DNA of 64,000 nucleotides from Candidatus Omnitrophota bacterium (GCA_018817165.1 JAHITY010000072.1:49164-113163), one strand, 5' to 3'. Positions 13,224 through 62,122 are shown, numbered from the stretch's first letter. Numbers and translations: made by a program. The notes: generated by a model from the letters alone, not told the origin.

Positions 13224-13226
13224 ATA

Positions 13227-14048: not shown

Positions 14049-14292
14049 TAAAGCAGCGTGGCAGCAAGTAGAGGATAATGTAATTGTTGTTACCAGTCAG
14101 ACAAGAAAAATGCATATTCTCGAAGGAGTTGGTGGCAGGATTTGGCAATTGCTTGAAAATCCTATGAGTAGGAATGAATTAATTGAAAAAATTCAAATAG
14201 AATATGATGCTCCTCCATGGCAAATACAGGAAGATATCGATAATTTTCTAAAAGAATTATCAGAAAAATTAATAATTAAAATAAATGGATAA
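14017..14292 (+). CDS. PqqD-family protein (RiPP recognition element / peptide chaperone)
   Basis: The ORF track starts at 13957, overlapping the HprK-like gene. The in-frame ATG at 14017 gives a ~91-aa protein 'MESVKTIIRNNKAAWQQVEDNVIVVTSQ...HILEGVGGRIWQLLENPMSRNELIEKIQIEYDAPPWQIQEDIDNFLKELSEK', which is the canonical PqqD fold sequence. Confidence 0.75.
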   Translation: MESVKTIIRNNKAAWQQVEDNVIVVTSQTRKMHILEGVGGRIWQLLENPMSRNELIEKIQIEYDAPPWQIQEDIDNFLKELSEKLIIKING

Positions 14293-15322
14293 GCAGATGC
14301 AAACTATTTGGAGCAAAGTTAAAGCGGATTTAAAACAAAAAGCAATCCCGATTGATGTTGTGCTTGAGTTGACTCGGAAATGTAATCTGAGTTGCTGTCA
14401 TTGTTATAATTTTAAAGATAATGCAGAGCTTAGTTTTGTCCAGGTTAAGGATATTGCCAGGCAATTAAGACAGGCAGGAACTTTATTTTTATCATTAACC
14501 GGCGGGGAAATTTTTACAAAAGCGGATATTTTTGAAATCTGTTTTTATTTGCGTCAGAGTTGCTTTGCTCTATCGATATTTACGAATGGAACCTTAATAA
14601 ATCAGAGCAATATCAAGATTATCCGGGAATTAGATCTTAATGAAGTGGGAATCAGCATACAGGGGGCAATAGCAAAAACTCATGACAAGATTGTTGGTTG
14701 TCAGGGGGCTTTTGCTAAATCAATAAACGCGATAAAATTATTGAAAAACGCTCAAATTCCGGTTAATTTAAAATGCACATTAATGCAAGATAACTTTGCG
14801 GAATATCATGATTTGATCAAGCTGGCAAGTGAACTGGGGGTGCCTTATATTATTGACCCGGTTGTTTCGCCAAAAGATGATGGCTCAAAAGATGTTTTAG
14901 CGCATCGCTTAGATGAAAAACAATTGTTTGATTTTTATCAAAATGAGTTACTCGAACAAAATAGTTTTATGCAAAAAAAAGAAGAAGATCCTGATGCTGA
15001 TTTCAGTTGTCCGGCAGGAACGGTTATGGCGAGTATTTCGGCAAAAGGAGATGTTTATCCTTGTATTCAGCTTCCCAAAAAGTTAGGTAATGTGTTTGAT
15101 ACTGATTTTAGAGGAATTTGGGAAAATTCAAAATTTTTAACTGAGCTAAGAGAAAAAACAAATATTCCGGCTTGTCGTAATTGCCGATTAGCGGCTTATT
15201 GCACCAGATGTCCTGGCTTAGCCTATCTTGAAGACGGAAATGCCTTTGGGATATCAAGCATTGCTTGCATTAATGCCGCGGTTTATGAGAAAATAGTAAA
15301 GCAAGAAACCTTAAACAAATGA
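14285..15322 (+). CDS. Radical SAM enzyme with C-terminal SPASM domain (peptide-modifying maturase-like)
   Basis: 345 aa. 'CNLSCCHCYN' (CxxxCxxC), 'SLTGGEIF', and the C-terminal Cys cluster 'CPAGTVMASISAKGDVYPCIQ ... CRNCRLAAYCTRCPG' (SPASM). Confidence 0.85.
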   Translation: MDKQMQTIWSKVKADLKQKAIPIDVVLELTRKCNLSCCHCYNFKDNAELSFVQVKDIARQLRQAGTLFLSLTGGEIFTKADIFEICFYLRQSCFALSIFTNGTLINQSNIKIIRELDLNEVGISIQGAIAKTHDKIVGCQGAFAKSINAIKLLKNAQIPVNLKCTLMQDNFAEYHDLIKLASELGVPYIIDPVVSPKDDGSKDVLAHRLDEKQLFDFYQNELLEQNSFMQKKEEDPDADFSCPAGTVMASISAKGDVYPCIQLPKKLGNVFDTDFRGIWENSKFLTELREKTNIPACRNCRLAAYCTRCPGLAYLEDGNAFGISSIACINAAVYEKIVKQETLNK

Positions 15323-17274
15323 GGATTATGAATAATCGATTGATTAAAAAACTTACGATTCAAATAATTATTATAGTGGTGATTATTGCCGCAGTATTTT
15401 CCTTTCTAATTAGTATGCAGACCAAAGAGCTTAAGTCTCGGATCATTGATAAGGCGGGGTTGTTTTCGTCTATTCTGGGAGCGCATCTAGATAATATAAT
15501 CGAAAATAATTTACGGGCATATGAAGCTTTGCAGCAAAATGTTGTGCAATTAACCAAAGATAATCAGGATATTGAAGAAATCAGTATTATTGCTCAGGAA
15601 AAAGTAGTTATCGCTGCCAGTGATAAAAATCTGATTGGTAAGGTTCCAGAGTTCGCGCATATCGCGATAATTGATGATGTTATTAAAACTAAACGTTCAA
15701 GAGCGATTGTCAGCTCTGAATTGGGGCGGGAGATTGTGATCCATTTCTTACCTTTATTCGCTGCGGATATAAATAAAAATGAGCTGTTGGGAATTATGCA
15801 GATGAAAGCAAAATTTCCTTCGCAAAAGGGCGAGATCGTCACTGCTTTGCGAAAAAATCGAAATGCTTACTATAAAGAAGAGGCTTTGCGTTTTGCGACG
15901 TCTCTTTCCAAATCGCTGGAAATTGTTTTAGGGGAAGTCAAAAGAAACTCGACTTATCTTGATGAATTAATCAGCAATATGTTAAAAGATAAGGAAATCC
16001 GAGATATAAAAATATTTTTAAAAGATTTAGAGTTTTTAATATCAGCAACTAAGGGCAGAGGTAATTTGGCTTTAACAGAGCAAGAAAAATCAATTTTTCT
16101 TAAAGTGATGCAAGATGAAAAAATAATGACCCATACAGTGGGAAAAAAAGAATATTTAACTGAAATTATCAGCCCGCTATATATAAGTTTAGATAATCAG
16201 AAAAAATCGCTGGGCGCGGTGGGAATTGTGATTTCAGCGGAGCAGGTGACTTCTTTGATTCGCATACGGAGAAATTACATTATTTTAATGAGTTTTGTGA
16301 TTATCTGTGCTTTTGTGTTGATAATCGGAATATTTTTTAAGCTGTCGATTATTCGACCGATTCGGGATCTTATAAATATGACTAAAGGGATTGCCCTGGG
16401 AGATTTTTCTAAAAAAGTTATGCTGGCGGCTAATGATGAAATAGGAGATTTAACCAAGGCATTTAATCATATGGCAGATGAACTGTCAAGTTCAAAGCAG
16501 GAAATTGAAGATTGGAATCTGCGGCTGCAAGATAAAATTGAAGCAGTGACCAAGGATCTTAATGCTAAACAGCAAATGCTGATTGAATCAGAAAAAATGG
16601 CTTCTCTGGGCGTTTTATCCGCAGGGATCGCGCATGAAATCAATAATCCCTTGGGGGTTATTTTAGGGCATGCTCAAATGCTGATAAAAGAATTAAAAGA
16701 AAAAAAATCATTAGATAATCCTCAAGAATCAATTCAGATGCTGGAGACAATTGAAAGTTATACTAGGCGCTGTTCATATATTGTAAATAGTTTAATTCAA
16801 TTTGCCAGGGAAAAACAAATGCAGATGATTGATGTGGATGTGAATCAGGCAATAGAAAATGCTTTGATTTTTACGCAGAACCGGATATCGAATAAAAGCA
16901 TTGAAATCGTTAAAACCCTCGAAGAAAATCTGCCAAATATCGCTGCTGATCAGATTCATCTGGAGCAGGTGTTTATTAATATTATTCTGAATGCTGAAGC
17001 AAGCATGCCGCAAGGCGGGAGCCTTAAAATTTCTACTCAGAAAACTAATGCACAAATAAAAGTTTTATTCGAAGATAATGGCCAAGGGATTTCTAAGGAT
17101 GATATGAATCGGATTTTTGAGCCGTTCTTTTCCACCAAAGATCCGGGCAAAGGTTCCGGCTTGGGATTGTCATTAAGTTATGGGATTATCCAGGCGCATG
17201 GAGGGGATATAAAGATCGTCAGTAAAAAAAATAAAGGGACATTGGTTGAAGTTTTATTACCGCTTAAGGGGTAA
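15319..17274 (+). CDS. Sensor histidine kinase (periplasmic sensor domain, TM, HAMP, HisKA, HATPase_c)
   Basis: 651 aa. N-terminal TM, second TM ~aa 320 followed by a HAMP-like segment. H-box 'SAGIAHEINNPLGVILGHAQML'. N/G boxes 'IILNAEASMPQGG', 'FEDNGQGI', 'GSGLGLSLSYGII'. 4-nt overlap with the rSAM gene. Confidence 0.85.
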   Translation: MRIMNNRLIKKLTIQIIIIVVIIAAVFSFLISMQTKELKSRIIDKAGLFSSILGAHLDNIIENNLRAYEALQQNVVQLTKDNQDIEEISIIAQEKVVIAASDKNLIGKVPEFAHIAIIDDVIKTKRSRAIVSSELGREIVIHFLPLFAADINKNELLGIMQMKAKFPSQKGEIVTALRKNRNAYYKEEALRFATSLSKSLEIVLGEVKRNSTYLDELISNMLKDKEIRDIKIFLKDLEFLISATKGRGNLALTEQEKSIFLKVMQDEKIMTHTVGKKEYLTEIISPLYISLDNQKKSLGAVGIVISAEQVTSLIRIRRNYIILMSFVIICAFVLIIGIFFKLSIIRPIRDLINMTKGIALGDFSKKVMLAANDEIGDLTKAFNHMADELSSSKQEIEDWNLRLQDKIEAVTKDLNAKQQMLIESEKMASLGVLSAGIAHEINNPLGVILGHAQMLIKELKEKKSLDNPQESIQMLETIESYTRRCSYIVNSLIQFAREKQMQMIDVDVNQAIENALIFTQNRISNKSIEIVKTLEENLPNIAADQIHLEQVFINIILNAEASMPQGGSLKISTQKTNAQIKVLFEDNGQGISKDDMNRIFEPFFSTKDPGKGSGLGLSLSYGIIQAHGGDIKIVSKKNKGTLVEVLLPLKG

Positions 17275-17283
17275 ATTAGAAAA

Positions 17284-18663
17284 ATGAAAAAAGAACATAT
17301 TCTAGTTGTAGATGATGAACCGGGAATGCGGCAGTTTTTAAATAAACTGTTAAGCGATAATGGTTATAAAATTTCAACAGCGGAAAATGGAAATGATGCA
17401 CTTGATTTAATCGCGAAACAGGTCCCGGATTTGGCAATAATTGATTTTAAAATGCCGGGCATGGATGGATTACAGTTATTAAGCAAGATAAAAGAAAAGT
17501 TTCCCCAAGTAACTGTGATCATGATGACAGCTTATGGCACAATGGAGAACGCTATCCGGGCAATCAAATCAGGAGCATATGATTATCTTTCTAAGCCTTT
17601 TGAGATTGAATCAATATTGTTGGTTATAAATAAGGCTTTAGAGAAAAAACGTTTAGAAGCGGAAAACCTAACCTTACGCCAAGAGCTTAAAAAAACCTAT
17701 ACTTTTTCTGATATTATTTCCGAAAACGCGGCAATGCATAAAATATTTGATCTGATTAAAAAAGTCGCGCCAACTAAAAGTACAGTTTTAATCCAAGGCC
17801 AGACCGGAACAGGCAAAGAACTAGTTGCTCGAGCGATTCATGCTTTAAGTCCCAGGCAGGAAAAGAATTTTGTGCCGGTTGATTGCGCGGCTTTAACGGA
17901 AAGTCTGCTGGAGAGTGAATTGTTTGGCCATGTAAGAGGGGCGTTTACCGGCGCCAGCCAGGATAAAAAGGGCTTGTTTGAAGTTGCGGATGGCGGAACA
18001 ATCTTTCTCGATGAAATTGGGCATATTTCCAAAGAAGTGCAGGCAAAACTTTTAAGAGTATTGCAGGATGGTGATATCAAAAGGGTGGGCGAAGCATTGA
18101 CCAGAACAGTTGATGTGCGATTGATTGCAGCCAGCAATGAAGATATTGAAAAAGCGGTTAAGCAAGGGACTTTTCGGGAAGACCTTTTTTATCGTTTGAA
18201 TGTAGTGCCGGTTTGGATTCCAGCGCTGATGGACAGAGCGGAAGATATTCCGATGCTGGTAGAGCACTTTATTTTAAAATACAATCGGATTGAAGCAAAA
18301 AAAGTCGAGGGCATGACCAGTACTGCTTTAAAAATCTTGATGGAGTATTCTTGGCCTGGTAATGTTCGGGAGTTGGAAAATATTATTCACCGGGCAGTGG
18401 TTATGGCTACAGAGGCTAAGATTGACCTTGCGGATTTGCCGCAGGTTGTAAGAATTGCTCCGACCGCTGACCTAAGAGACAAGTCGCGTACGCTTAATTT
18501 TAAAAAGGCAAAGCAAAGGGCGATAGAGGTTTTTGAACAGAGGTTCTTAACAGAGGCCCTTATGCGGCATGAAGGAAATGTGAGCCGGACAGCTAAAGAG
18601 ATAGGCCTGGACAGAAGGAACCTACACAAAAAATTAAAAAGTTACAAGATAAAATCCCGCTAA
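17284..18663 (+). CDS. Sigma-54-dependent response regulator (NtrC family: REC + AAA+ sigma-54 activator + Fis-type HTH)
   Basis: 459 aa. REC 'ILVVDDEPGMRQFL...DFKMPGMDG'. Walker A 'GQTGTGKELVARAIH'. 'GAFTGA' motif present verbatim ('VRGAFTGAS'). C-terminal 'NVSRTAKEIGLDRRNLHKKLK' HTH. Confidence 0.9.
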   Translation: MKKEHILVVDDEPGMRQFLNKLLSDNGYKISTAENGNDALDLIAKQVPDLAIIDFKMPGMDGLQLLSKIKEKFPQVTVIMMTAYGTMENAIRAIKSGAYDYLSKPFEIESILLVINKALEKKRLEAENLTLRQELKKTYTFSDIISENAAMHKIFDLIKKVAPTKSTVLIQGQTGTGKELVARAIHALSPRQEKNFVPVDCAALTESLLESELFGHVRGAFTGASQDKKGLFEVADGGTIFLDEIGHISKEVQAKLLRVLQDGDIKRVGEALTRTVDVRLIAASNEDIEKAVKQGTFREDLFYRLNVVPVWIPALMDRAEDIPMLVEHFILKYNRIEAKKVEGMTSTALKILMEYSWPGNVRELENIIHRAVVMATEAKIDLADLPQVVRIAPTADLRDKSRTLNFKKAKQRAIEVFEQRFLTEALMRHEGNVSRTAKEIGLDRRNLHKKLKSYKIKSR

Positions 18664-18664
18664 T

Positions 18665-18760
18665 TTCCCCTTTCTTAAAACATAAAAAATACTTAAAAAT
18701 CTCCATAAGTAACAAAACAAGCAATGCTTGAAATGTAATAAATTGTAGTTTAAAATAATA
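18665..18760. repeat. Left copy of a ~90-bp direct repeat flanking the RAYT-like gene; contains the palindrome AAGCAaTGCTT (18719..18729)
   Basis: 'cccctttcttaaaacataaaaaatac...ccataagtaacaaaacaagcaatgcttgaaatgtaataaatt' is matched by 19770..19865. Confidence 0.6.
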
Positions 18761-18779
18761 TGGAGGAAAAGGAGGGAAA

Positions 18780-19631
18780 ATGAGAAAGGTAGAAGGGGTT
18801 CCGCTGGCTAGGGAAAGAATAATCTATCCTAATGCTGTTTATCATATTACGCACCGGGCGCCGGGGCGAGAGATGCTATTCCTCGAAGATAGTGATTATC
18901 TTTACATGCTTTCCTTGTTAAAAAGTATTCCGCAGAAATTTAGCTGGAAGATATTTTCATTTTGCTTGATGCCTAATCATTTGCATTTATTGGTTCGAAT
19001 AAAAGATGTAAATCTTTCGCTGGGAGCAAAATATTTATTTGAAAAATACGCAAAATATCTTAACGCGAAATATTCAAGAAAAGGTCCGGTTTTTTGTAAG
19101 CCTTTTAGGGCGAGTTTATGCTTGAATGATAAATATTTGCTTGCTATTTCTTTGTATATTCATTTGAATCCATTTAAAGCCGGATTAATTATGGAATTGA
19201 GTAAATACAGGTGGAGTTCTTTGAATTTATTTATAGGAAGAATTAGTACTCAAAGTTTTGTTGATTGTGATTTTATCTTAAATATGTTAAACGACAATAC
19301 TGAGAAATCAAAAGAAATATATATTAATTTAATAAACGATGCGATAAATGTCCGGCTAAATGCTATTTCTCAGGATCGCAATGCCTTAAACAATTTTAGG
19401 CTGGAATTTGCTTATTACATGAAATCAAAAAATAAGGTAGATAACGTTGATGAAGACACATTGAAGCTATGTGAGGAAATAGAAAGAAGTAAAAAAAACA
19501 AGCAGTGCACTCATCCGGAAGATGTAGCTGCTCTAAAATATCTAGGGAGCAGCTACTTGCCAACGGCTATACAATTTCAGAAATTGCCAAAATGCTGCAC
19601 AAAAGCCGACAGCTTATTTCCCGCAAATTAA
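18780..19631 (+). CDS. HuH Y1 transposase-like protein (IS200-like / REP-associated tyrosine transposase RAYT family) with C-terminal extension
   Basis: 283 aa. 'YHITHRA', HuH motif 'MPNHLHLLV', catalytic-Tyr region 'YIHLNPFKAGLIMELSKYRWSS' (cf. the Y-x-H-x-NP...GLV...W-SS motif of RayT/IS200 TnpA). Strong RBS 'ggaggaaaaggagggaaaATG'. Confidence 0.7.
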   Translation: MRKVEGVPLARERIIYPNAVYHITHRAPGREMLFLEDSDYLYMLSLLKSIPQKFSWKIFSFCLMPNHLHLLVRIKDVNLSLGAKYLFEKYAKYLNAKYSRKGPVFCKPFRASLCLNDKYLLAISLYIHLNPFKAGLIMELSKYRWSSLNLFIGRISTQSFVDCDFILNMLNDNTEKSKEIYINLINDAINVRLNAISQDRNALNNFRLEFAYYMKSKNKVDNVDEDTLKLCEEIERSKKNKQCTHPEDVAALKYLGSSYLPTAIQFQKLPKCCTKADSLFPAN

Positions 19632-19769
19632 TCAAGTAATCCTGTTTACTGCTAAAAATAATCAAATATAACATAAAGAGCATTGCTTATAATGTTATAT
19701 TTGGCTTGGATAGAGAAATATGGATAAAAAATTAAGGTTTTACCAGATAAATCTTCGCAAGTCTCCCTT

Positions 19770-19865
19770 TTTTAAAACACACAAAATATTATTTAATTTG
19801 GAAGCATTAAAGAGCACTAAAGTATCTATAAGTAACATTATAAGCAATGCTTGAAATGTATATTT
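19770..19865. repeat. Right copy of the ~90-bp direct repeat; palindrome AAGCAaTGCTT at 19842..19852; an inverted partial copy 'gagcattgctta' at 19688..19699
   Basis: 'tctcccttttttaaaacacacaaaatatt...ctataagtaacattataagcaatgcttgaaatgtatatttta' matches 18665..18760. Confidence 0.6.
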
Positions 19866-20021
19866 TATTAGTTGGGAAATGTGTAAAATAGTACTCAGTG
19901 AGGCATTTTGTACGCATTTATTTTAATAAATTTGTGATGGGATAGTATTTATTGAATTATTAGTGTTGTAACACGCTCAAAATAAAGATATTATGAGTAA
20001 GGAGAATTTAATTTTTACAAG

Positions 20022-20050
20022 TTGTCTTGGCATAGCTATTGCTCTATAAT
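20022..20050 (+). promoter_or_regulatory. Candidate promoter of the giant gene: sigma-54 -24/-12 element TGGCAT-N5-TTGCT (20028..20043), overlapping a sigma-70-like TTGTCT-17-TATAAT (20022..20050)
   Basis: 'tTGGCATagctaTTGCTctataat'. GG (20029-30) and GC (20041-42) are separated by exactly 10 nt as in the sigma-54 consensus TGGCAC-N5-TTGCW. An NtrC-type activator gene lies 1.4 kb upstream. Confidence 0.4.
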
Positions 20051-20082
20051 ACTGAATATCTTTATTTTTAAAATTAAGGTGC

Positions 20083-20271
20083 AGTATGTTAAAAAATACG
20101 AAAAGGGAATAGTCTGTTAAGAAAAATGAAAAAATAGTATGCTAAGAAATATGAAAAAGGAATAGTATGCTAAGAAAAATGAAAAAAGAGCAGGATGTTA
20201 AGAAAAATGAAAAAATAGTATGTTAAAAAATACGAAAAGGGAGTAGTATGCTAAGAAATACGAAAAAGGTT
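20083..20271 (+). repeat. Six or seven tandem ~27-bp copies of the giant gene's own RBS/start-codon region (AGTATGYTAARAAAWAYGAAAARGGRAT), creating serial mini-uORFs
   Basis: Units begin at 20083, 20111 (CTG instead of ATG), 20136, 20164 (extended), 20217 and 20245 (the real start at 20248). uORFs: MLKNTKRE*, MLRNMKKE*, MLRKMKKEQDVKKNEKIVC*, MLKNTKRE*. Each ATG is preceded by 'aagggaat/aaaggaat' (SD-like). Confidence 0.8.
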
Positions 20272-23200
20272 AATAATATAGATTTTCCTAATAATCTGTT
20301 AAAATTTTGCTTAACTTTTTTGTTTTTTATTGGACCTTTAATTATCTTTACATCTTTTGCGCAAGCTGATGTGCCTGTGTTTATGGCTTATTCGCAAGCA
20401 AGTGCTACCAGTGGAGGCACTATTAATGTTACTAAGCCTTCTGGGACTGTACAGGGTGATTTACTTATTGCCAGTTATGTATCTGATGACATATATACCT
20501 TAACCGCGCCCTCAGGTTGGACGCTTATTCAAGGCGGATATTCAAATCCGGTTGATAATACGCCAAGTTTTGGTGTCTGGTATAAGATCGCCGATGCTTC
20601 AGAACCGACCAGCTATACATTTTCTTCAGGGGGAAACGATGACCAATATGTAGCGATTCTCAGATATCAAGGCCATGATCCGGCAGCGCCGATAAATAAT
20701 TCGGCAATTGCTTATTCCACTGGCAGCAATGCTCCTACAGCACCTTCAATAAATACTACGAGGGAAGAGTGTGTTATTTTACGGGTGTTTGGGGCTGATG
20801 ATGATGATACTCCGTATAATGTTCCGGCTGGATATTCGGAGCGCTATAATGGGAAAAGTACTGCCAGTAATAGTTCCTGCGGAGGTGCAGGCGCTGATAC
20901 TACACAGGCTTTGCCCGGGGCAACTGGGACCGCTGCTTTTTCGATGAATGCTATTGAAGAGTGGATGGCTGTAACTATTGCAATAGCTCCGCCGCCAAAG
21001 CCAAATGTAAATATCACAGTCACCCCTAACCAGACAAAGGCTCAGAACAGCGGCGGTTTGGAGTTTAAACTTGTTTTTGATCAGGTGATGAATACTTCAA
21101 TAGCGCCGGTGGTAAGTTATGACCCGGCAGGAGTACTCGGAGCCCAGTCGTGTACTGGAGGAACATGGTCAACTACGACACTGACAAATGATACATACAA
21201 AGTTTACAATGACAATCCGATAACTGATTCTACTGGTGATGGCACAGCCACGATAAGCGTGAGTGCAGCTAAAAGCGCAGCAGGGGCAATAATGAACCCT
21301 GATACGAATGACACTTTTCTTATTGATGCGACTGTTCCTATTAATCCTACACAGCCTTGCAGCGCATGGAATTCTAGCAGTAAAATAAATTCGATAGCCA
21401 ATGATACTTGGCAGGAAGCAGATAATACGCCTTATTTTGAATGGTCAGGCGCAACAGATACTGGCGGCACAGGAGTCAACGGTTATTCGGTTTATTGGGG
21501 AAATGACGCGTACGGTGAACCAGCATTAATCCAAGAACAGTCGGCCAGCAATTATAATGTTTCCTCAGGAACGGCAGATGGGGTTTATTATCTAAGAGTT
21601 AGAACTTTTGATATTATTGGTAATTACAGTCAGTCGGTAACTTTGTTTACTTTTCGCTATGATGCCGGTGTTCCTTTAAATCCGGATATTCCCTGTGCTG
21701 CTTGGCAATCAAATCTAAAAGTAAATCCCATCAGTAATAATACATGGCAGCAAGCTGATGATACGCCTTATTTTGAATGGACCGGTGCTAATGACAGCGG
21801 AGGTTCAGGAATAAGCGGCTATTCAGTTTATTGGGGTACTGATATTAATGGAGCACCAGGAGTAAGTCAAGAACAGGGCAATGCTGATTATGAGATCAGT
21901 ACTCCGACGGGTGATGGGACCTATTATTTAAGGATAAGAACTTTTGATAATCTTAATCATTATAGCGCGCCAATTACTTTATTTACATTTCGATATGACG
22001 CAACTGCTCCTTTGAATCCCACAGTTCCGTGTAATGCCTGGGATTCTTCATCTAAGAATACAGTGATTTCTGATAATACTGCTCAAGGGATTGATTCAAG
22101 TCCTTATTTTGAATGGTCTGGAGCAGATGACGGCAGCGGTCAAGGCGTCAGCGGATATTCAGTTTACTGGGGTATTGACCCAGAGGGCGAGCCGGCAACA
22201 GCACAGGAACAATCAGCGGCAAATTATAATATTGTTTCCGCGGTAAGTGAAGGTACTTATTATTTACGCATAAGGACATTTGATGCTTTGGGACATTACA
22301 GTGATGCTGTAACATTATTTACGTTTATTCTTGATCAAACAAAACCCACGGTCAGCGTGGGTGTTTTGCCTGATCCCTCTGGGCACAGAGCTCCCGGGGA
22401 ATTAGGGTTTACTTTACTTTTTTCTGAATCCATGGATATGGGTACAGATCCAATTGTAAGTTATGATCCTAGCGGAGCAACCGGAGTACAGAACGCAAGT
22501 CTTAATGGGGCTTGGTCAACAACAAATAATCCTAATGATACTTATACTGTTTACAATAGCAATGCGATAAACAGTGCTACCGGAGAAGGCACAGCAACAA
22601 TCTCGATCAGCATGGCAAAAGATATTGCCGGCAATACAATGCTGGCTGACACTAATGATGTTTTCTCGATCAATACAGCGATAGACCATTTTGTAATTGA
22701 GCATGATGGATCAGGATTAATTAATATTCCGGAAACTATAACTATTACCGCGAAAAATATCACTAACTGTACGGTAAATGATTTTACCGGTCAGATAACA
22801 TTAAGTACTTTAAATGAAACAAAACAGATCACCTGGGCTTTGGTCAGCGGCAATGGAACTTTTGTTGATAATGGATTAGGCAATGATTCAGCAACCTATA
22901 CTTTTAATGCCGCTGACAATGGGGTGGTTGTATTGCAGCTTACTTGCAGTGCGGCAAACAACTTGGATATTGAGGCAACGGATGGAACGCATAGTGATGA
23001 TGATACTGAAGGAACCTTGGTTATTTCGACAACGGCTTTAGGCTGGTTTGTGATTGAGCATGATAATGCGGCAGTTGCCGGAGTAAAAGAAGATATAAAA
23101 GTCACAGCCAAAGATACAAATGGCCTGACGAAAACAGATTATGTGGGAACAGTTATTTTAGATACCACGGGAACACCAACAACAATTTCCTGGACGATCA

Positions 23201-26200
23201 GTACTGGACTGGGAACTTTTAGCGAAGGCGGAGCAAGTGTTGATACAGCGCAATACACATTTAATCCCAATGATAATGGTGTGGCTATATTTACTATAAA
23301 GGATACTAAAGCGGAAACTTTGAATATATCGGTTGATGACGCAGGGAAAACTGATAATAATCTTGAGGGTAATCTAGTTATTGCCCCAGGGGCATTGAAT
23401 CATTTTATTGTCAGCCATGATGCTCAAGCCATAGCCGGCATAGCGGACAGTGTGACAATCAGAGCTTATGATATTTATAATAATATTAAAACTGATTATG
23501 TCGGGACAATGACAGTAGATACAAATGGAACAGACAGCGCGATCAGTTGGGCAAAGATCAGCGGTAATGGAATATTTACTGACGGCGGTCCCTCGGCTGA
23601 TACCGCGACCTATGGTTTTGTATCAGCTGACGCGGGGGTAGTTGTTTTAAGTATTACTGATACAAAAAAAGAAACAATTGATATTGATGCCAGTGCTGAG
23701 GGGAAAACAGATACTGATTCTGAGGGGACAATGGTGATCAGTGCCGCGGCAATTGATTATTTTCTGATCAGTCATGATACGGCGGGATCCGCGGGAGTTG
23801 CTGAACAGGTGACTGTTTTGGCAAAAGACAGTTATGGAAATACCAAGACTGATTATACCGGGACAATTACTTTGGATACTAATGGTACGGCAGCAGCAAT
23901 CAGCTGGGCCAAGGCAGTGGGCAATGGAATATTTACGGATAATGGGCCGAGTGTTGATACAGCAACCTATGTTTTTGATTTAACTGACAATGGTATTGCC
24001 GTATTTTCAATAATTGATAGTACCGCTGAATCGATTAATATTTCTGTAAGCGGAGACGCTAAGACAGATAATAATACTGAAGGTAATTTAGTCATCGGGC
24101 CAGCGGTTATCTGGTCATTTCGGGTAACACATGACGGCGCGGGTAATGCTGGGTTAGCGGAAACAGTTACAATTACCGCATTGAACAGTATTGGCCAGAT
24201 AAAAACGGATTATACCGGAACGATTACAATTGATACCAACGGAACAGCTACAGCAATCAGTTGGACTAAATTGATCGGCAATGGGACATTTAATGATGGC
24301 GGTGTGGCTGTTGATACAGCGGTTTATACTTTTTCTGCTTTGGATAATGGTGTGGTAACGCTGGCGATAACGGATAATGCGGTAGAGAGTATTGATATTG
24401 ATGTCAGCGGAAGCGGGAAGACTGATGATGACAGCGAAGGCTTGATGAATATTGATACTGCTTTGCTTGCTTATTTTAGGATAGCGCATGATGGGATTGC
24501 TGTTGCGGGAATAAATGAAAATATTACAATTACCGCCAAAGATACCTTAGGGCAAACTAAGACAGATTATACGGGAACAATATATATAGATACTGACGGC
24601 ACGGCGAATACAATTACCTGGACAAAGATCAGCGGAGCAGGCGGATTTGTCGATGACGGAGCAGCCGCGGATACTTGTGCTTATACATTCAGCGCAGCGG
24701 ATAATGGTGTTGTTGTGCTGGGGATGTCTGATACTTTTACTGAAACAATCAATATCTCAGTATCCGGCAGCGCGTCTGATGATAATACTGAAGGATTATT
24801 ACAGGTTCGTCCCGGAACATTGAGTAAATTTATTATTTCGCATGATAATAATGCGTTTACCGGAATTCCCGAGCATATTACTATAGCAGCTTATGATGGA
24901 TTTAATAATATTAAAACAGATTATACTGGTTCAATCATCGTTGATACCAATGGCACGGCAACAACTATTTCTTGGGCAAAATATCAAGGCGCAGGAACTT
25001 TTGTTGATGGCGGTGCAAGTGTTGATACAGCAACTTATACATACAATTCAGCAGACACGGGAATTGTAACATTGGATATGACTGATATGACTGCTGAGAC
25101 AATAAATATTTCGGTAAGCGGAGGCGGCAGTGTTGATGATAATACTGAAGGCAATCTGGTTATTACTCAGTTTTTACTGGGCAATTGGACTTATAATAAG
25201 GAAGTGACGATTGATCGGACAAAAGTAATGGCTGCTCTGACTGATTTCCCTGTGCTGATAAGTATTGTGGATACAGCTTTGCGGGACAATGCCCGCAGCG
25301 ATGGTTTTGACATTGTGTTTACAGCAAGTGATAAGAATACTAAGTTGGATCATGAAATAGAAAGCTTTGATAAGGCAACCGGGACTTTAGTCGCCTGGGT
25401 AAAAATTCCCAGTCTTTTGGCATCAGCAGACACAAAAATTTATATGTATTACGGAAATCCGGCTGCCAGTGATCAGCAGAATAAAAGCGGAGTATGGGAT
25501 TCATCATACAAAGGAGTATGGCATTTAAATAATGATCCTTCAATAACAGCGCCGCAGGTAAAAGATTCAACTTCTAATAATAATGCGATGACTTCTTACG
25601 GCACAATGACCAATACTGATTTAGTTTACGCGAAAGTCGGCAAAGGAATTGATTTTGACGGCAGTAATGATTACTTTAAAAAAACCAGTCCGGTTGGAGT
25701 GGGAACACCGGGTGATTATACTGTTTCGGCATGGTTTAAATACACTTCTTCTCCGGCAAATTACGGAACGATTTATAATCATAATAATTATTCTCCTCAA
25801 TTTGGTTTTTATAATCAAAGCGTAGCCATGGTTTATCACAGTTCCTTAATTACTTCCAGCGGAACAGCCACGCATAATGATAATCAATGGCATAAGGTTG
25901 ACTATCGCAGAGTAGGGTCAACTGTTTACTTTTATGTTGATGGTGTTTTGCATGGAACCGGCAGTCATACCCGGACATTTCCTACAGCAACATCAGCCTT
26001 GATTGGCTGGTCAAATTACAGCAATGAGTATTGGCTAGGGCAGCTGGATGAAGTGCGCTACTCAACCACAGCGCGTTCTCCGGAATGGATCGCCACAGAA
26101 TATAATAATCAAAATTCACCAGCTACTTTTATAAATGTTGGTTTAGCGGCAACCGCAACAGCAAATCCAGTGATAACGGATACTGTTCCTGTCGGGCAGA

Positions 26201-29200
26201 CAGGTAATTTAATCCTTAATGTTTCGGTTACTAACAATGAAGGAAGCGTTTTAACGATAAACAGCATTACCCTGAATAATGTCGGGACAGCCAGTGATGC
26301 TGAGATAACAGCAGTAAAACTTTACTATGATTCGAATAATTCTTTGGATTATACTCCGGGAGTGGATACACAGGTTGGCAATAGCGGTTTTTCTTCAGGC
26401 ACTAAGATGTTTTCCGGATTTAATATAAATATTTCGGCGGGAGCAACCCAATATTTATTCGCGGTTGTTGATGTGGCTTCGGCTTGCGCTAGTGGTAAAA
26501 TATTGGATGTCTCTATTCCGATCAATGGGATCACTTTTTCTAATGGTAAGAAACTGGCTAGCGCGGTTTTAAATTCCAATGGGACAAGACAGACATATAT
26601 AGGTTTGAATCATTTTGTGATTAATCATGATGGCGCGGCGATTGCCGGCTTAGATGAACATATTACGATTACAGCTAAAGATGCTTATGGTAATACTAAA
26701 ACAGACTATACCGGGACAATAACTGTTGATACTGATGGTACCGCGGAATCAATCTCCTGGTCAAAATACGCAGGTAACGGAGTGTTTACTGACGGAGGTT
26801 CAAGCCTTGATACGGCGACATATACTTTCGCGCTATCAGATGGAGGAGTTGTAGTTTTAAATATCAGCAATCAGATCGCTCAGACAATCAATATCTCGGT
26901 AAACGGTGACGCTAAGAGTGATGATAATACAGAACCTGATCTTAGTTTTTCCGCGGGGTTGGTGGATAAATTTATTCTAAATCATGATCAGGCGGCGATT
27001 GCCGGGCAAGGAGAAACAATTACGATTATTGTGAAAGATAGTTTTGGCAATACAGTGACTAATTATTCCGGACAGATAACTTTGGGAACAGATGGTTCGG
27101 CTGCGGATATTAGCTGGACACTTAATTCCGGTTCAGGCATATTTTTGAATAATGGAGCTGGTGCCGGCACGGCAATGTATACTTTTGATCCGAGTGATTC
27201 CGGAACAGCGAGCTTTGAAATAATGGATAATAAAGCAGAGACAATAAATATTATCGCGGTTGGGGATGGAAAATATGATGATAATAGTGAAGGAGCGCTT
27301 GTTGTGGCGCCTGGAGAATTACACCATTTTGTGATCAGTCATGATCAATCTGCTAATGCCGGCAGCGCGGAAGTGATTTCCATAACAGCTTTAGACAGTT
27401 TAAATAATATAAAAACTAATTATACCGGAACAGTTACTTTGGATACAACAGGGACAGCGACAAAAATTACTTGGGCGCTTAATGCGGGTAATGGAATTTT
27501 TATTGACGGCGGAGGATCATTAGATACGGCGACATATACGTTTAATGCTTTGGATAATGGGATAGCGGTATTTAATTTAACTGATACAAAAGCAGAAATA
27601 ATTAATATTTCAGTTGTTGCCGGCAGTATTACTGATAATGATACTGAGGGCAATATGATTGTTGGACCCGGAGAAATAGATTATTTTCTGATCAGTCATG
27701 ATAGAATAGCGACAACTGATGTTTCAGAGCAAATAATGATCACAGCTTATGATGCTTTTGCGAATATTAAAAATGATTATACCGGGACAATAGGATTAGA
27801 TACCACGGGAACGGTTACGACAATCACCTGGACATTGATCAGCGGTGAAGGGATATTTAATGACTCAGGCCCTTCAGATGATACTGCCAGCTATACTTTT
27901 ACCGCGGATGATTCAGGAGTGGTTATTGTAAGCATTATTAATTATACAGCGGAATCAGTAAATATATCGGTTACAGGAGATGGTAAAACAGATAATAATC
28001 TTGAAGGAAATCTAGTATTTGTTTCTTCCGGGATCGATCATTTTTTAATTGTTCATGATAATAACGCGATTGCCGGTATCGCGGAAAGTATTTCAATTTA
28101 TGCTAAAAACGCTAATGGCGATACCTTGACCAGTTACGGCGGGCAAATTACGATTGATACAACCGGAACCCCCGGAACAATCAGCTGGGCATTACAATCA
28201 GGTACCGGGGATTTTACTGATTCCGGTGCTGCTGATGATACTTGTTCTTATATATATGATGATGCTGATTTGGGTGTAGTTGTTTTGACTATGATTGATT
28301 CTACGGAAGAAACAATAAATATTTCAGTTTTCGGTGAAGCTAAAACAGATAATAATACAGAAGGAAATTTAGTGATTAATCCCGCAGGGCTGCATCATTT
28401 TTCAATCACCCATGATAATAACGCAATTGCTGGAATCGGGGAAACAGTAACTATTCAGGCAAAGGACGCGAATAATAATACTTTAAATACTTATGCCGGA
28501 CAAATTAATCTGGATACAACTGGGACAGCAACAACAGTTACTTGGGCAAAAATTTCCGGTAATGGCAGTTTTAGTGATGGGGGAGCTTTGGTTGATACAG
28601 CAACATATTCGTATGTTGCCGGAGACAGCGGGACTTGTGTTTTGAGTATTACAGATACTAAAGTAGAATCCTTAAACATATCAGTAGCTGGCGGGGGGAA
28701 AACTGACGATGATAAAGAAGGCTTATTAACAATTGGGGCAGGAGCGATTGATCATTTTACAATCAGTCATGATGGAATCGCGGTTGCCGGGGTCGCGGAT
28801 AATGTAACGATAACGGCTTATGATGCTTATGGTAATATTAAGACTAATTATACAGGTCAAATTACTTTGGATACTAATGGTACCGCGACAACAATAACCT
28901 GGGCCAAAGCTGCGGGACTGGGAACTTTTATTGAAGGCGGAGCAGCAGTGGATACAGCGACATATACATTTTTAGCTGCGGATAATGGGCAATGCATACT
29001 TAAAATAACTGATACAAAATCAGAAAGTCTGAATATTTCTGTTATCGGAGATGGAAAAAGTGACAATGATTCAGAAGGTAATTTAATTGTCAGTCCAACC
29101 AGTTTACAGTATTTTATGGTCAGTCATGATACTAATGCTGAGGCGGGAGTAGCGGAAAATATAACAATCACAGCCTATGATCTATATTCAAATATCAAAG

Positions 29201-32200
29201 ATAATTATACCGGGACAATAACTTTGGATACAAATGGAACGGCAACAACAATCAGCTGGTCGAAAGTAACTGGTAATGGTGTGTTTACTGATGGCGGGGC
29301 AGCTGTAGATACCGCTACTTATACTTATACTGACAGTGATAAAGGCATTGTGGTATTAAGTATTAATGACACTAAAAAAGAGAATATTGATATTGATGTT
29401 TTTGGCGGAGGAAAAACCGATACGGATACTGAGGGTATTTTAGTTATAGCTCCGACCAGTATTAATCACTTTGTAATTACGCATGATGGCAATGCTGAGG
29501 CTGGGATAGCGGAAAATATAACAGTTAAAGCATATGATATTTACTCAAATTTAAAAGATAATTATATGGGTACGATCGGCTTAAATACTAATGGAACAGA
29601 GACAACTATAACCTGGGCAAAGATAACTGGTAATGGCGTATTTGTCGATGGCGGCGCGGCTGTGGATACAGCAAGTTATACTTACGCAGATAGTGATGAT
29701 GGTATTGCGGTTTTTTCGATTACAGATACAAAAAAAGAGGTAATCAATATTACTATATCCGGGGATGGTAAAAGCGATACTAATACCGAAGGTGATTTAA
29801 CAGTAGGCGCTTCGGCGATTAATTATTTTACGATTTTTCATGACGGATCAGGGGTGGTTGGTTTGGGCGAATCAATCGCGATTTACGCTAAAGATACTTG
29901 GGGAAATATTAAAGATAATTATATCGGACAGATCACTGTGGATACTAATGGAACAGCAACAGCGATTGCCTGGACATTATCTGCCGGAGTCGGCGTATTT
30001 GTCGACGGAGGAGCGGCAGCTGATACCGCGACATATACTTTCAGTGATGCTGATGACGGTTTGGTTGTTCTGTCTTTAAATAACAGTGTCGCGGAAACAA
30101 TAAATATTTCAGTCAGCGGTGACGGCAAGACAGATGATAATACAGAAGGCAATTTAATTATAAATCCAGTGGGCGGATTAAATACCGGTTATTTATCGCC
30201 AACAGCAAATAGCGGTAATTTTACCAGCCCGGCAAATGCTTATGCTAATGATACCTCGCGGGCAACTTCATCTAATGGGCAATCACAGCAGTATTCTAAT
30301 TACGGGATCAATATTCCTGCGGGATCAACGATTTTAGGGATTGAAGTACAGATGGACGCGTATGCTTCAACTACTACTGGTTTGATCCAAGGACTGGTTG
30401 AATTATCCTGGAATGGTGGAACAAATTTTACTTCCACTGGAAAAATTACTCCGGATATGATTACCTCTGAAGTAACTTATATTTTGGGCGGGCCAACTGA
30501 TATTTGGGGCAGGACATGGACAGTCGCGGATTTAACCAATGCTAATTTTCGTTTAAGAATTAATGCCAGCACCCCTGGGACAACAAGTTATTTATATCTG
30601 GATTGGATCCCGGTCAGGGTTTATTATGATCTGCCGCCAGACGCGATTGCTAATCCTGTCAGCACAAATTCAGTGTCCGCCGGGGCAAGTAATATTTTAA
30701 GCCTTGACATTACGGTTACCAACTCTGCCAGCCAGAATAGAATTATAAATTCTCTGACAATTAATAATACCGGAACTTTATCAGATACAGAGATTGCTTC
30801 ATTAAAATTATATTATGACAGTAATAATTCCGGGGATTATACAGTAAATGTTGATAATCAAGTCGGCTCAGGGGTATTTAATTCCGCCTCAAAAACTTTT
30901 ACTGGCTTAATTATAACTGTTCCGCCCAGCGGTTCGGCAGATCTTTTTGTAGTTTGTCAGATCGCGCAAACTGTAAATGACGCGGATACTTTGGATATAC
31001 AGATCCCGAGCAATGGAATAAGTTTTGCTAATGGAGTTCAAATAGAAGATACAGCATTAAATTCAGCAGGGATAATCCCGGTTTCCTTAGTATTAAATCA
31101 TTTTGTGATTGTGCATGATCAAGCGGCGGTCACTGGTATTCCGGAACAGGTAAGAATCACGGCGCATGATGTTTATGGAAATATTAAGACAGCCTACACC
31201 GGGACAATAACTTTGGATACAAACGGAACCGCAACAGCGATAACTTGGGCAAAAGTCACAGGTAATGGGGTGTTTACAGACGGCGGAGCAGCTGTTGATA
31301 CAGCGACATATATATTTAACGCAACGGATAATGGTACTGCTTTGTTTAGCATTGTTGATAATAAAGCTGAGACAATTAATATTTCAGTCAGCGGAAACGC
31401 TAAAATTGATGATAATACTGAAGGCAATCTTGTGATTTCTTCGGGAGCAATCGACCATTTTCAGATTAGTCATGATAGCGCGGCTGTTGCCGGAGTCCCG
31501 GAAAACATAATCATAACAGCAAAAGACGTGTTTAATAATACGGTTGCTAATTATACCGGACAAATAATTCTAGACACAAATGGCACTGCCGCGGGAATAA
31601 GCTGGGAATTGTTTTCCGGTTTTGGAGTTTTTGCTGATGGCGGTCAAGGAGTTGATACGGCAACTTATACTTTTAATTCCTCGGATAATTCAACTGTTAC
31701 TTTTACGCTTACCGCAACAGTAGCGGAAACTCTTAATATCGCGGTAACCGGGGATGGGAAAGCTGATGATAATACTGAGGCAAATCTGATTGTTTCGGCT
31801 GCGGGTTTGAATCATTTTTTAATTAATCATGACGGAGCAGCGCAAGCGGGAGTAGCGGAGACAATAACAATCACGGCAAAAGATCAGTATGGGAATACGA
31901 AAAAGAATTATACTGAACAGATCAGTTTGGATACCAATGGAACAGCCTCGACAATAGTTTGGGCAAAAATCAGCGGTAATGGTACATTTGTTGACGGCGG
32001 TTTATCTGTTGATACTGCTACCTATACCTATAATTTGGCGGATAATGGCGTAGTTATATTATCACTGAAAGATACAAATCTTGAATCTTTAAATATTTCA
32101 GTTTCCGGATCAGGCAAAACAGATAATGATAGTGAAGGGCTACTTAATGTCGGCCCAGGGATAATTAATCATTTTTCAATTATCCATGATGGTTTTGGAT

Positions 32201-35200
32201 TGCAGAATCAAGCAGAGGAAATCATTATTAAAGCGTATGACGCGTATAATAATATTAAAACTGATTATACAGGATCAATAATTGTAGACACAAATGGGAC
32301 AGCAAATGCTATTACCTGGGCATTGAATGCCGGCAGCGGAGTTTTTAATGATAACGGGGCGAGTGTAGATACAGCGACTTATACATTTAATCTTAGTGAC
32401 AATGGACAGGTTATATTATCGTTGACTGATACTGTTTCTGAAATAATTAATATTTCAATATCCGGTGATACGAAAACAGATGATGATAATGAAGGTGTTC
32501 TGGAAATTGTTGCCGCGGGATTTCATCATTTTAAAATCACGCATGATGGAAACGCGATTGCTGGTATTGCTGAACAGATCATGGTCACGGCTAAGGATGC
32601 TAGTGATGTGACGATTACTAATTATGCCGGAACTATTACTTTGGATACAAATGGCACTGCTACGGAAATAAGCTGGGCATTGCAGTCAGGAACCGGAGCA
32701 TTTAATGACAATGGGCTAACGGTTGATACAGCAACATATACTTTTAATCTGAGTGACAATGGAACTGCGGTTTTTACAATTACGAATACACAGATTCAGA
32801 CAATTAATATAAGTGTTAGCGGCAGTGGGAAAACTGATGATAATACGGAAGGCAATTTAGTTTTTAATCCTCCGGGATTAAAGCATTTTAGGATTACACA
32901 TGATGGTTCAGCAATTGCCGGAGTCGTTGAAAATATTATAATTACCGCGCGTGACGCAAACAGTAATCCAGTTGTGAATTATACCGGGTCTATTACTCTT
33001 GATACAAACGGCACTAGCGGAACAATTGCCTGGTCAAAAATTTCCGGTAATGGCACATTTACTGACGGCGGAGCAGCAGTTGATACAGCGACTTATTCAT
33101 TTGCCGCCGCGGATAATGGCACAGTTACTCTGGGTATAGTCAACACTAAGGCTGAGTTGTTTAATGTTTCGGTCATTGGTGACGCCAAGACTGATGATAA
33201 TTTAGAAGGGGATATTACAGTTATCGCGAATGCACTGAATAAATTTATTATTGTTCATGATGCCAGCGCGCAGGCTGGTATTGCGGAGAATATAATAATT
33301 ACCGCTAAAGACGCTTATGCAAATACAATCATTAATTATACCGGGACAATAAATTTAGATACAAATGGAAACGCAACAACAATCAGCTGGGCCAAGGTAA
33401 CAGGCAGTGGAGTGCTGAATGATGGGGGCGCCTTGGTTGATACAGCTGATTATACTTTTGGGTTGGCGGATAATGGAGTGGTTGTTTTAAGCATTACAGA
33501 TACGACAGTAGAAAACCTGAATATCTCAGTGGCTAGTGATGGTAAATCCGATGATGATACGGAAGGGATTTTGATTGTCGGGGCAGGGGCTTTAGATAAA
33601 TTTATTGTCAGTCATGATGGTTCAGGATACGCGGGTATCGGAGAATTGATCACAGTAAAAGCCTATGATATATACGCAAACATAAAGACAAATTATAGCG
33701 GAACGATCACTGTGGATACTAATGGAACAATGAACGCGATCAGCTGGTCATTAAATTCCGGATTGGGTGTCTTCACTGATGGCGGGGCCGCGGTTGATAC
33801 GGCGACATATACTTTTGTGGCTGGAGATAATGGCTTGGTTGTGCTGATGCTTATTGATACAGCCGCTGAATCTATAGATATTGATATTTCCGGCTCAGGA
33901 AAATTTGATGATGATAGCGAAGGAAATATGTTGGTTTCTCCCAGCGGATTACATCATTTTTTGATTGAGCATGATGCGAGTGCCATGGCCGGTATCGCGG
34001 AAAGTATCAATATTTATGCCAAAGATTATTATAATAATACGCAAAATGATTATACCGGAACGATTACCTTGGATACTACGGGGACAGCGACAACAATTAC
34101 CTGGTCAAATATTTCCGGCAATGGAATGTTTAATGATAATGGAGCAAGTCTGGATACAGCTGCTTATACTTTTATTTTAGCAGATAATGGCTTGGTTAGT
34201 TTTTCGCTTAATGATACTACCGCGGAAATCCTGAATATTTCGGTCAGCGGTGACGGTAAATTTGATGATGATACTGAAGGTGGTTTAACAGTAAGCCCCA
34301 ATGTTTTGAATTATTTTTCAATAAGTCATGATGGGTCGGCAGTGCAATCAATCGGTGAAGAAATAATGGTTACAGCTAAAGATCAATATGGCAATATAAA
34401 AACCGACTATATCGGAACAATTATTCTAGATACGGATGGGGATGTGAATAATATCAGTTGGGAGTTGAAAAACGGGGCAGGGTTTTTTACTGACGGCGGT
34501 TCTGGGGTTGATACAGCGATGTATACTTTTGCTTTACAGGATAATGGAGAAGCTTTTTTTAATATAACTGACAATACAGCGCAAACCATAGACATTGATG
34601 TGAATGATGGTTCGATTATTGATGATGACACAGAGGGCGCTCTTGTTGTACAGGCTTCATCATTAAGTGTGGATATTACGGCTAATACTTTGAGCAGCGG
34701 GTATATAAGTCAAACAGTGACTGATAAATTAATTTTGGATCTTACGCTTACAAATAACAATGTTCTGGCCGCTGACACGATTCAGAGCCTGACGATTAAT
34801 AATAGCGGAACAATCCCTGATAGCCAGATCAGCGCAATAAAACTTTTTTATGACAGCAATAACTCCGGTGAATTTGAACCAGGTATTGATGCGCAGATCG
34901 GGACTAAAGTTTTTAGCGGCGGAGCAGCTGTATTTAATGATATTGATGTATTGATTCCAATTGCCGGAACAGAAGAATTATACGCAACAGTAGATTTAAG
35001 CGGAACGGTTACTAATGGGGCAAGCGTGGATATAAGTGTTCCGATTAATGGAATTAGTTTTGAATTTTCGCCAACAGCTGAAGATAGTATTTTAAATTCG
35101 ACAGGAAGCTATATTGTTGATTCCGTGGGTCCGGGTAATGTTTCCGGCTTGGCAACAAACTCCCATAATAATGCGATCAGCACTTGGAGCGATCCGCAAT

Positions 35201-62062: not shown

Positions 62063-62066
62063 AACG

Positions 62067-62122
62067 ACACAAGACACAAGACACAAGACACAAGACACAA
62101 GACACAAGACACAAGACACAAG
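62067..62122 (+). repeat. Perfect heptamer microsatellite (ACACAAG)x8
   Basis: 56 bp of exact tandem ACACAAG starting 5 nt after the wecA-like stop codon. Confidence 0.9.

Follow-up and report, generated by a model that had tools for sequence, protein, structure and literature searches.

The leader of a giant gene in an uncultivated Candidatus Omnitrophota bacterium is built from repeated copies of that gene's own start region. The gene, which encodes a protein of 6130 amino acids, lies in a 64,000-nucleotide stretch of DNA (GCA_018817165.1, JAHITY010000072.1:49164-113163; the whole stretch is referred to as the window) and is headed by seven head-to-tail units (u1 to u7) at 20083-20272 on the plus strand, upstream of its open reading frame (ORF). 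Each unit reproduces the region where translation of the gene itself begins, with its start signal and first 7-8 codons. As the initial annotation of this region had proposed, the giant gene is preceded by a ladder of mini-ORFs made up of these copies, and only the last copy, u7, enters the 6130-aa ORF.

We read the array, with a confidence only slightly above even, as a tolerated by-product of local amplification that shows coupling-type translational behavior and has a modest net effect. It is read as a by-product and not as a dedicated switch because the upstream copies decay and are not maintained.

A tandem array of the giant gene's own start region

The units begin at 20083, 20111, 20136, 20164, 20192, 20217, and 20245, with lengths of 28, 25, 28, 28, 25, 28, and 28 nt, respectively (25-28 nt, to be substituted for the ~27 bp given initially), and share a layout of AGT, a start codon, 6-7 codons, and a junction. 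Over 20083-20267, Tandem Repeats Finder (TRF) reported a period of 28 nt with 6.8 copies, 79% matches, and a score of 185, along with a longer, higher-order periodicity of 81 nt that scored 258 over 2.3 copies, with 83% matches and no indels. Searches with the 25-nt unit consensus, allowing up to three mismatches, produced five matches, all within the array, and no match in 100 shuffles. The mini-ORFs and the Shine-Dalgarno (SD) elements at both ends of the array are listed below, with SD duplex energies.

20076..20081 (+), AAGGTG, the SD-like element of unit 1, which lies in unique sequence (-4.0 kcal/mol); probably the ancestral SD
20086..20112 (+), mini-ORF u1: ATG 20086, MLKNTKRE, TAG 20110-20112, 1 nt before the next start
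20114..20137 (+), mini-ORF u2: CTG 20114, a weak start codon, LLRKMKK, TAG 20135-20137 (-5.3 kcal/mol)
20139..20165 (+), mini-ORF u3: ATG 20139, MLRNMKKE, TAG 20163-20165; no SD (-0.6 kcal/mol)
20167..20226 (+), mini-ORF u4: ATG 20167, 19 codons MLRKMKKEQDVKKNEKIVC, TAA 20224-20226, running through unit 5 (-5.6 kcal/mol)
20195..20218 (+), mini-ORF u5: ATG 20195, MLRKMKK, TAG 20216-20218; the AGGA motif abuts the ATG (-4.5 kcal/mol)
20220..20246 (+), mini-ORF u6: ATG 20220, MLKNTKRE, TAG 20244-20246; no SD of its own (-0.6 kcal/mol)
20237..20243 (+), SD AAGGGAG of the authentic start, located inside u6 ahead of its TAG (20244-20246) and of the real ATG (20248); the strongest in the array (-7.9 kcal/mol)
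20248 (+), u7: the ATG that opens the 6130-aa ORF (20248-38640)

The upstream mini-ORFs span 7-19 codons, and the four terminating copies counted in the initial annotation become five mini-ORFs with ATG and one with CTG, the latter being u2, the copy already recognized as carrying CTG in place of ATG. In five of the six upstream units, TAG lies exactly 1 nt before the next start (TAG-T-ATG). The exception is u4, the TAA of which falls 1 nt after the ATG of u6, and the junction between units 4 and 5 reads GAGCAGG and lacks the TAG. All frames upstream of u7 are closed by stops within one or two units, and on this ground an N-terminal extension of the giant protein through read-through or serial +1 frameshifting at the TAG junctions was rejected. 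All three stop codons serve as stops among the genes of the window, which counts against TAG read-through, and GAA-TAG-T is, in our judgment, not plausible as a slippery site.

The genome makes use of Shine-Dalgarno pairing: the genes of the window average -5.1 kcal/mol against the anti-SD, compared with -2.65 kcal/mol for random 20-mers, and 58% of these genes reach -5 kcal/mol or better, compared with 21% of the random 20-mers. Among the upstream units, only u1 and u4, which combine an SD with ATG, look like competent independent starts. An SD-like element had been ascribed to every copy; it is present at some of the starts, is missing from u3 and u6, and in u5 directly abuts the start codon, and with the CTG of u2 the upstream copies are partly degenerate, so that the array cannot be described as a ladder of seven working start sites. 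The SD of u7 is the same as that of the next gene downstream (38878), AAGGGAGT. Relaxed constraint on the upstream copies combined with purifying selection on the last one would produce such a gradient.

The SD-like element of the units consists of Lys/Arg codons of the signal-peptide n-region (AAA-AAG-G / AAA-AGG-GA), and because these codons double as an SD-like element, the duplication did not kill the gene. Coupled leader cistrons are characterized by a short ORF that lies upstream and has an SD and a start of its own, as found in u1 and u4, and by a downstream SD within the upstream ORF together with an abutting stop, as found at the u6/u7 junction. The 1-nt stop-to-start gap of u6/u7 recurs at four other junctions.

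Promoter, related loci, and origin of the array

The array was compared with the leaders of related loci; the genes and regulatory sites around it are listed below.

15319..17274 (+), sensor histidine kinase (HAMP-HisKA-HATPase; Pfam), partner of the activator
17284..18663 (+), NtrC-type sigma-54 activator (receiver, Sigma54_activat, HTH_8; Pfam)
18780..19631 (+), IS200-like Y1 transposase (RAYT-like; Pfam Y1_Tnp), between the activator and the giant gene
19880..19917 (no strand assigned), candidate enhancer (upstream activating sequence), TGTGTAAAAT-N-GTGAGGC-ATTTTGTACGCA, ~110-150 bp upstream of the promoter
20028..20043 (+), predicted sigma-54 promoter TGGCAT-agcta-TTGCT (TGGCATagctaTTGCT), -24 GG at 20029-20030 and -12 GC at 20041-20042
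20248..38640 (+), 6130-aa ORF: signal peptide, novel N-terminal domain, DUF2341, LamG, CARDB-like, and C-terminal PQQ-like beta-propeller

The sigma-54 consensus TGGCAY-N5-TTGCW has a single match on both strands of the 64 kb, with 0.30 expected, and this match falls in the few hundred bases where the target promoter of the adjacent activator is expected. The same motif precedes the large gene in the related loci L002 (1464), L007 (8542), L011 (1832), and L012 (5950). From the -24/-12 elements, the transcription start site (TSS) is predicted near 20054; a sigma-70-like promoter, TTGTCT-17-TATAAT, overlaps the sigma-54 motif and would give nearly the same TSS. Because the conserved sigma-54 promoter lies upstream of all units, the whole array is predicted to reside in the 5' untranslated region (UTR), within a leader of 194 nt from the predicted TSS to the real ATG. 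A TSS downstream of most units, an objection anticipated in the initial annotation, is thus unlikely.

The candidate enhancer is plausibly the site bound by the activator: the block TGTGTAAAAT...GTGAGGC...TTTTACACA is conserved when the window is aligned to L007, L011, and L012, and a sequence that appears similar by eye is located at ~1310-1350 in L002. The locus combines spaced -24/-12 elements, an AAA+ activator gene, and a candidate upstream block, as expected of a sigma-54 promoter served by an enhancer-binding protein. Matches to antisense promoter consensus sequences in the array showed no clear excess (7, with 5.7 in shuffles).

The sigma-54 promoter is also flanked by a perfect 14-nt inverted repeat, AAAATAAAGATATT at 19979-19992 and AATATCTTTATTTT at 20055-20068. 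The right arm begins at the predicted TSS and has no counterpart that we could see in L007, where the left arm is partly kept; the repeat may be a chance occurrence in AT-rich DNA.

Related loci were found through the neighboring activator (L007, L011, L012, and L013) or through the N-terminus of the giant gene (L002). L007 encodes an activator 92% identical to that of the window and has the same synteny, including the transposase, whereas the activators of L011 and L012 are 82% and 70% identical, respectively. L002 encodes the best protein match to the giant-gene N-terminus (P0001, 60% identical); in the other protein matches, the same domain is fused to pseudopilins or other proteins. Searches of genome contigs and of metagenome contigs with the N-terminal 300 aa found one 40%-identical relative each, with a different architecture. 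In L008-L010, with activators 91% identical, the contigs end 220-260 bp past the activator, and the comparison covers the four leaders of L002, L007, L011, and L012, all of which have the same promoter motif.

No tandem array was found in any of these four leaders, either by repeat finding or by eye. Each has a single SD and a single ATG, and the ATG follows the promoter TTGCT at 18-65 nt; the corresponding distance in the window is 42 nt to the ATG of u1 and 204 nt to the ATG of u7. The comparison of orthologous loci that the initial annotation had suggested does not bear out a conserved regulatory architecture at four loci with the same activator and promoter. The array looks like a young, local, lineage-specific amplification, not an established regulatory device. 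On the simplest reading, the ancestral start lay at the position of u1 and this lineage gained ~162 nt of copies, because 42 nt is inside the 18-65 nt range of the relatives and the SD before u1, AAGGTG, is in unique sequence.

The 4/5 junction, GAGCAGGATG, resembles by eye the unique sequence before u1, GTGCAGTATG, and we read this likeness as what would be expected of the original duplication junction. Among the units, u1 and u6 match at 27 of 28 positions, u2 and u5 at 23 of 25, and other pairs at 20-24 of 28. This order is inconsistent with one simple block duplication, and the mosaic relationships imply that several duplication or conversion events must have occurred.

In L002, the N-terminus of the orthologue reads MPKNKT-MKNKKNK (1503-1541), with a weak repeat signal (TRF period 9, score 32), and may represent an 18-nt in-frame duplication spanning the start codon. 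If this duplication is real, the A-rich n-region of the gene family may be generally prone to slippage.

Proposed effect of the array on translation

The amplification that we favor would have begun with slippage or unequal exchange in an A-rich region, which copied a ~28-nt segment from just upstream of the ATG through codon 7-8. The copies would have been tolerated since the Lys/Arg codons that close each unit resemble an SD and stand at a suitable distance from the following ATG, and for the same reason the last copy would always keep a complete start site; later duplication or conversion events would then have reshuffled the units. The mRNA would begin at ~20054 with a 194-nt, A-rich, unstructured leader, on which ribosomes would load at u1 and u4 and directly at u7. 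Because the stops lie 1 nt before the next start or, for u4, just past it, terminating ribosomes would be passed on, and u6, which holds the real SD and ends in TAG-T-ATG, would work as a leader cistron does in a bicistronic design. Overall, expression would probably change only modestly. Translational coupling is most effective at very short stop-start distances and is aided by an SD (reviewed in PMC12548453), and it was the mode of action of Sinorhizobium meliloti upstream ORFs (uORFs) terminating at the main start (PMC13285730).

Folding of the leader (52% A, 4% C) gave a minimum free energy of -28 kcal/mol, compared with -23.6 +/- 3.2 kcal/mol for shuffled sequences (z = -1.36; 21 of 200 shuffles were at least as stable), and pairing among the repeats that would occlude the real SD, as once suggested, did not appear. 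An Rfam search of the leader returned no match at E <= 1, and the leader contains no intrinsic terminator. In the light of these results, an attenuator based on a leader peptide and a riboswitch-type leader were rejected. The equilibrium cost of opening the real start was 6.6 kcal/mol with the full array and 12.5 kcal/mol with one unit. This gain in accessibility requires at least 120 nt of coding sequence and is gone with 40-80 nt of downstream context; it is reproduced by shuffled arrays and lies within the range of the relatives (4.6-11.6 kcal/mol). As a weak hint from these models, the A-rich spacer may soak up the U-rich codons of the signal peptide.

Several points weigh against the amplification reading. 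The function of the array is inferred wholly from sequence, and ribosomes on u6 would transiently cover the real SD, which leaves the net sign of the effect uncertain. The array is known from one genome, and the nearest homologous N-terminus, at 60% identity, is too distant to reveal recent conservation at the species or genus level. Bacteria tend to delete useless tandem DNA, and the survival of diverged units could mean selection. The lower opening cost with the array is itself a weak hint at a benefit.

If the array were selected, it could serve as a ramp for loading ribosomes, with coupled mini-cistrons starting ~32 nt past the TSS and relaying ribosomes to the real start, an account that we consider unlikely. 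Such a ramp would keep the A-rich start unpaired from the U-rich signal-peptide codons and translation close behind RNA polymerase over 18.4 kb, guarding against Rho termination and RNases, and the number of units would be an evolvable tuning knob.

Equally doubtful is a copy-number rheostat, in which gain or loss of units alters leader length and uORF load and thereby tunes a costly surface protein across the population. The mosaic units do show repeated duplication or conversion, RecA-independent deletion could proceed between exact repeats of 26-27 nt, which u1/u6 and the u2-u3 / u5-u6 junctions provide, and the same genome carries genuine perfect heptamer repeats. There is also a precedent in Haemophilus influenzae, where expression of the HMW1A adhesin falls as the 7-bp repeats in the 5' UTR rise in number (PMC12721329). 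However, units of 25-28 nt that are 79% alike, with neighbors matching at 20-24 of 28 positions, are a poor substrate for slippage, in contrast to the 100% identical GACACAA x8 array in the same window. Furthermore, both assemblies of the region show the same seven units, the related loci have no array and hence provide no variation series, and a change in copy number cannot shift the reading frame. The geometry does not fit the on/off phase switch that had also been suggested: since each copy comes with a start codon, in-register gain or loss of units would spare the last unit and the frame. Contingency loci have near-perfect units, the gain or loss of which shifts the frame or the promoter spacing; none of this applies to the array.

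We assign a similarly low probability to a decoy or attenuator, in which upstream starts trap ribosomes and ribosomes on u5 and u6 occlude the real SD, restraining the 18-kb gene. The real SD indeed lies inside mini-ORF u6, and the 25-28 nt spacing of the starts is about one footprint of an initiating ribosome. Occlusion of a main ribosome-binding site by a close upstream one is on record in S. meliloti, but it was tied there to largely overlapping uORFs (PMC13285730), whereas here the stops abut the next start. With the SD of u5 abutting its start codon and none in u6, little de novo loading is expected near the real start, the SD of which is the strongest of all.

A platform for an RNA-binding protein that would turn initiation down or up, either a CsrA-like protein on GGA motifs or ribosomal protein S1 on the A-rich tract, is very improbable. 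GGA occurs at AGGGAAU, AAGGAAU, CAGGAUG, and AGGGAGU, the last overlapping the real SD, the leader is rich in A (52%), and similar candidates have been proposed for start-codon heptamers of Beggiatoaceae (PMC4679880); nevertheless, these GGA motifs are merely the copied SD-like element, and none is found in a predicted hairpin loop.

An assembly artefact, a concern raised in the initial annotation that comes to mind as the source is a short-read metagenome-assembled genome and the 190-nt array exceeds a typical read, is the least probable explanation, to the point of being negligible: an independently assembled Logan contig of run SRR7067536 (L003), which may derive from the same read set as the source assembly, is identical to window positions 12410-23195 at 10,786 of 10,786 bases, array included; the path through the k-mer (de Bruijn) graph is unique at k >= 31 because the units have diverged and share no exact repeat longer than 27 nt, a length below the usual k-mer sizes; and collapse or expansion would yield identical copies, whereas the copies in the array are 79% similar.

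Locus context and comparison with known systems

The giant protein has a Sec-type signal peptide (MLRNTKK... AQA/DV), followed by an N-terminal domain that has neither a Pfam match nor a sequence match in the PDB. This domain (~200 aa, window 20248-21000) contains the motifs FGVWYKIA and GADDDDTPY and reappears as the C-terminal part of pseudopilin-like (PulG-type) proteins as well as in other pilus clusters; the relatives seen were P0002, P0004, and P0008 (L006). It suggests an uncharacterised family associated with pili or the type II secretion system (T2SS), and the description of the giant protein as an adhesin is plausible. Downstream, minor pseudopilins, a secretin, PilM- and PilO-like proteins, and a PilB/GspE ATPase are encoded, so that the giant gene is embedded in a type IV pilus / T2SS-like cluster, in agreement with published giant genes beside T2SS-like loci in Omnitrophota (bioRxiv 10.1101/2023.11.21.568195).

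Upstream of the giant gene lie a radical-SAM/SPASM-PqqD-ScmC cassette and then the kinase, activator, and transposase genes. Synteny of the kinase is kept in L007, L008, L010, L012, and L013, and orthologues of the activator (in NCBI, a sigma-54 dependent regulator of Candidatus Omnitrophota) with 70-92% identity precede large genes with sigma-54 promoters. The transposase insertion is present in L007 and absent in L002, L011, and L012. REP-like (repetitive extragenic palindrome) copies flank the transposase gene at 18696-18737, 19655-19696 (inverted), and 19819-19860, and its flanks are duplicated (18628-18679 / 19726-19777 and 18696-18737 / 19819-19860). The array has no sequence similarity to the nearby transposase or the REP-like sequences.

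Across several Omnitrophota, the sigma-54 promoter and the inverted-repeat block of the candidate enhancer (19880-19917 in the window) precede large secreted-protein genes that are mutually non-homologous, and these genes share an upstream setting of an orthologous kinase/NtrC-type pair and the radical-SAM/SPASM-PqqD-ScmC cassette. In the literature on Omnitrophota giant genes that was searched, sigma factors and tandem repeats are unmentioned.

The window also contains heptamer repeats, none of which would be expected by chance. One, GACACAA x4.7 on the plus strand at 44631-44663, lies inside an ORF on the minus strand (44120-44737), where it reads TTGTGTC on the coding strand, in the 5' coding region of a 205-aa pilus-cluster protein, and encodes LVSCVLCLVSC of a lipoprotein-like signal peptide. 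A change in unit number would shift the frame because 7 is not a multiple of 3, which makes this repeat a better candidate for a phase-variable locus than the start-site array. The other, a perfect GACACAA x8.1 at 62066-62122, is intergenic: a glycosyl transferase family 4 gene (61007-62062) ends 4 nt ahead of it, and a second IS200-like Y1 transposase gene (62739-63902) follows ~600 nt downstream.

The firmer result of this analysis is that giant genes of this lineage located by pilus/T2SS-like loci follow a conserved, predicted sigma-54 promoter with a candidate enhancer and have a two-component system as neighbor, a setting that provides a testable regulatory handle on unexplained giant proteins. 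As nothing more than a tolerated amplification, the array would be a minor curiosity. If the chain feeds the real start, it would be a natural, multi-step counterpart of the synthetic bicistronic design, would show that simple slippage can supply a gene with a leader made of its own start site, and would bear on translation initiation and transcription-translation coupling in long bacterial genes.

No earlier account of a gene's own start region arrayed in tandem came up in the literature searches, in agreement with the initial annotation, which knew of no bacterial equivalent. Several known systems share individual features with it. The contingency loci H. influenzae lic1A (CAAT) and Neisseria opa (CTCTT, in the part encoding the signal peptide) have repeats inside the ORF, and a change in unit number shifts the frame. 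The array resembles them in having alternative starts in all three frames near the 5' end and a repeat that touches the signal-peptide n-region, but its upstream frames all stop and its last unit always restores the frame. The trpL/hisL attenuators and the ermCL/secM arrest leaders similarly have short translated leader ORFs; unlike these, the array has no terminator/antiterminator pair, significant structure, regulatory codon run, or Rfam match.

The (ATCTTTC)n repeats of H. influenzae hmw1A (PMC12721329) likewise form a tandem array in the leader of a gene for a large surface or secreted protein, and in both cases, copy number could in principle tune expression. The hmw repeats, however, are 7-bp, near-perfect, numerous, and non-coding, and act via a long hairpin that is cleaved by RNase III, whereas the array consists of 25-28-nt units, 79% alike, with start and stop codons and no significant structure. 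The TAACTGA heptamers of Beggiatoaceae, Cyanobacteria, and Bacteroidetes (PMC4679880) are also direct repeats just upstream of starts, with a suspected post-transcriptional role, but are 7-nt units spread over many genes genome-wide, in contrast to a single array of 25-28-nt units built from the gene's own start region.

Bicistronic designs and termination-reinitiation pairs (PMC12548453; PMC13285730) share with the array a short upstream ORF with SD and ATG, in which the next SD is embedded in the last codons and the stop lies within 1-4 nt of the next start. Unlike these pairs, the array chains up to six cistrons, all copied from the gene's own start, several of which have lost the SD or the ATG. 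Taken separately, uORFs, translational coupling, and repeats in adhesin leaders are known components; their combination is new.

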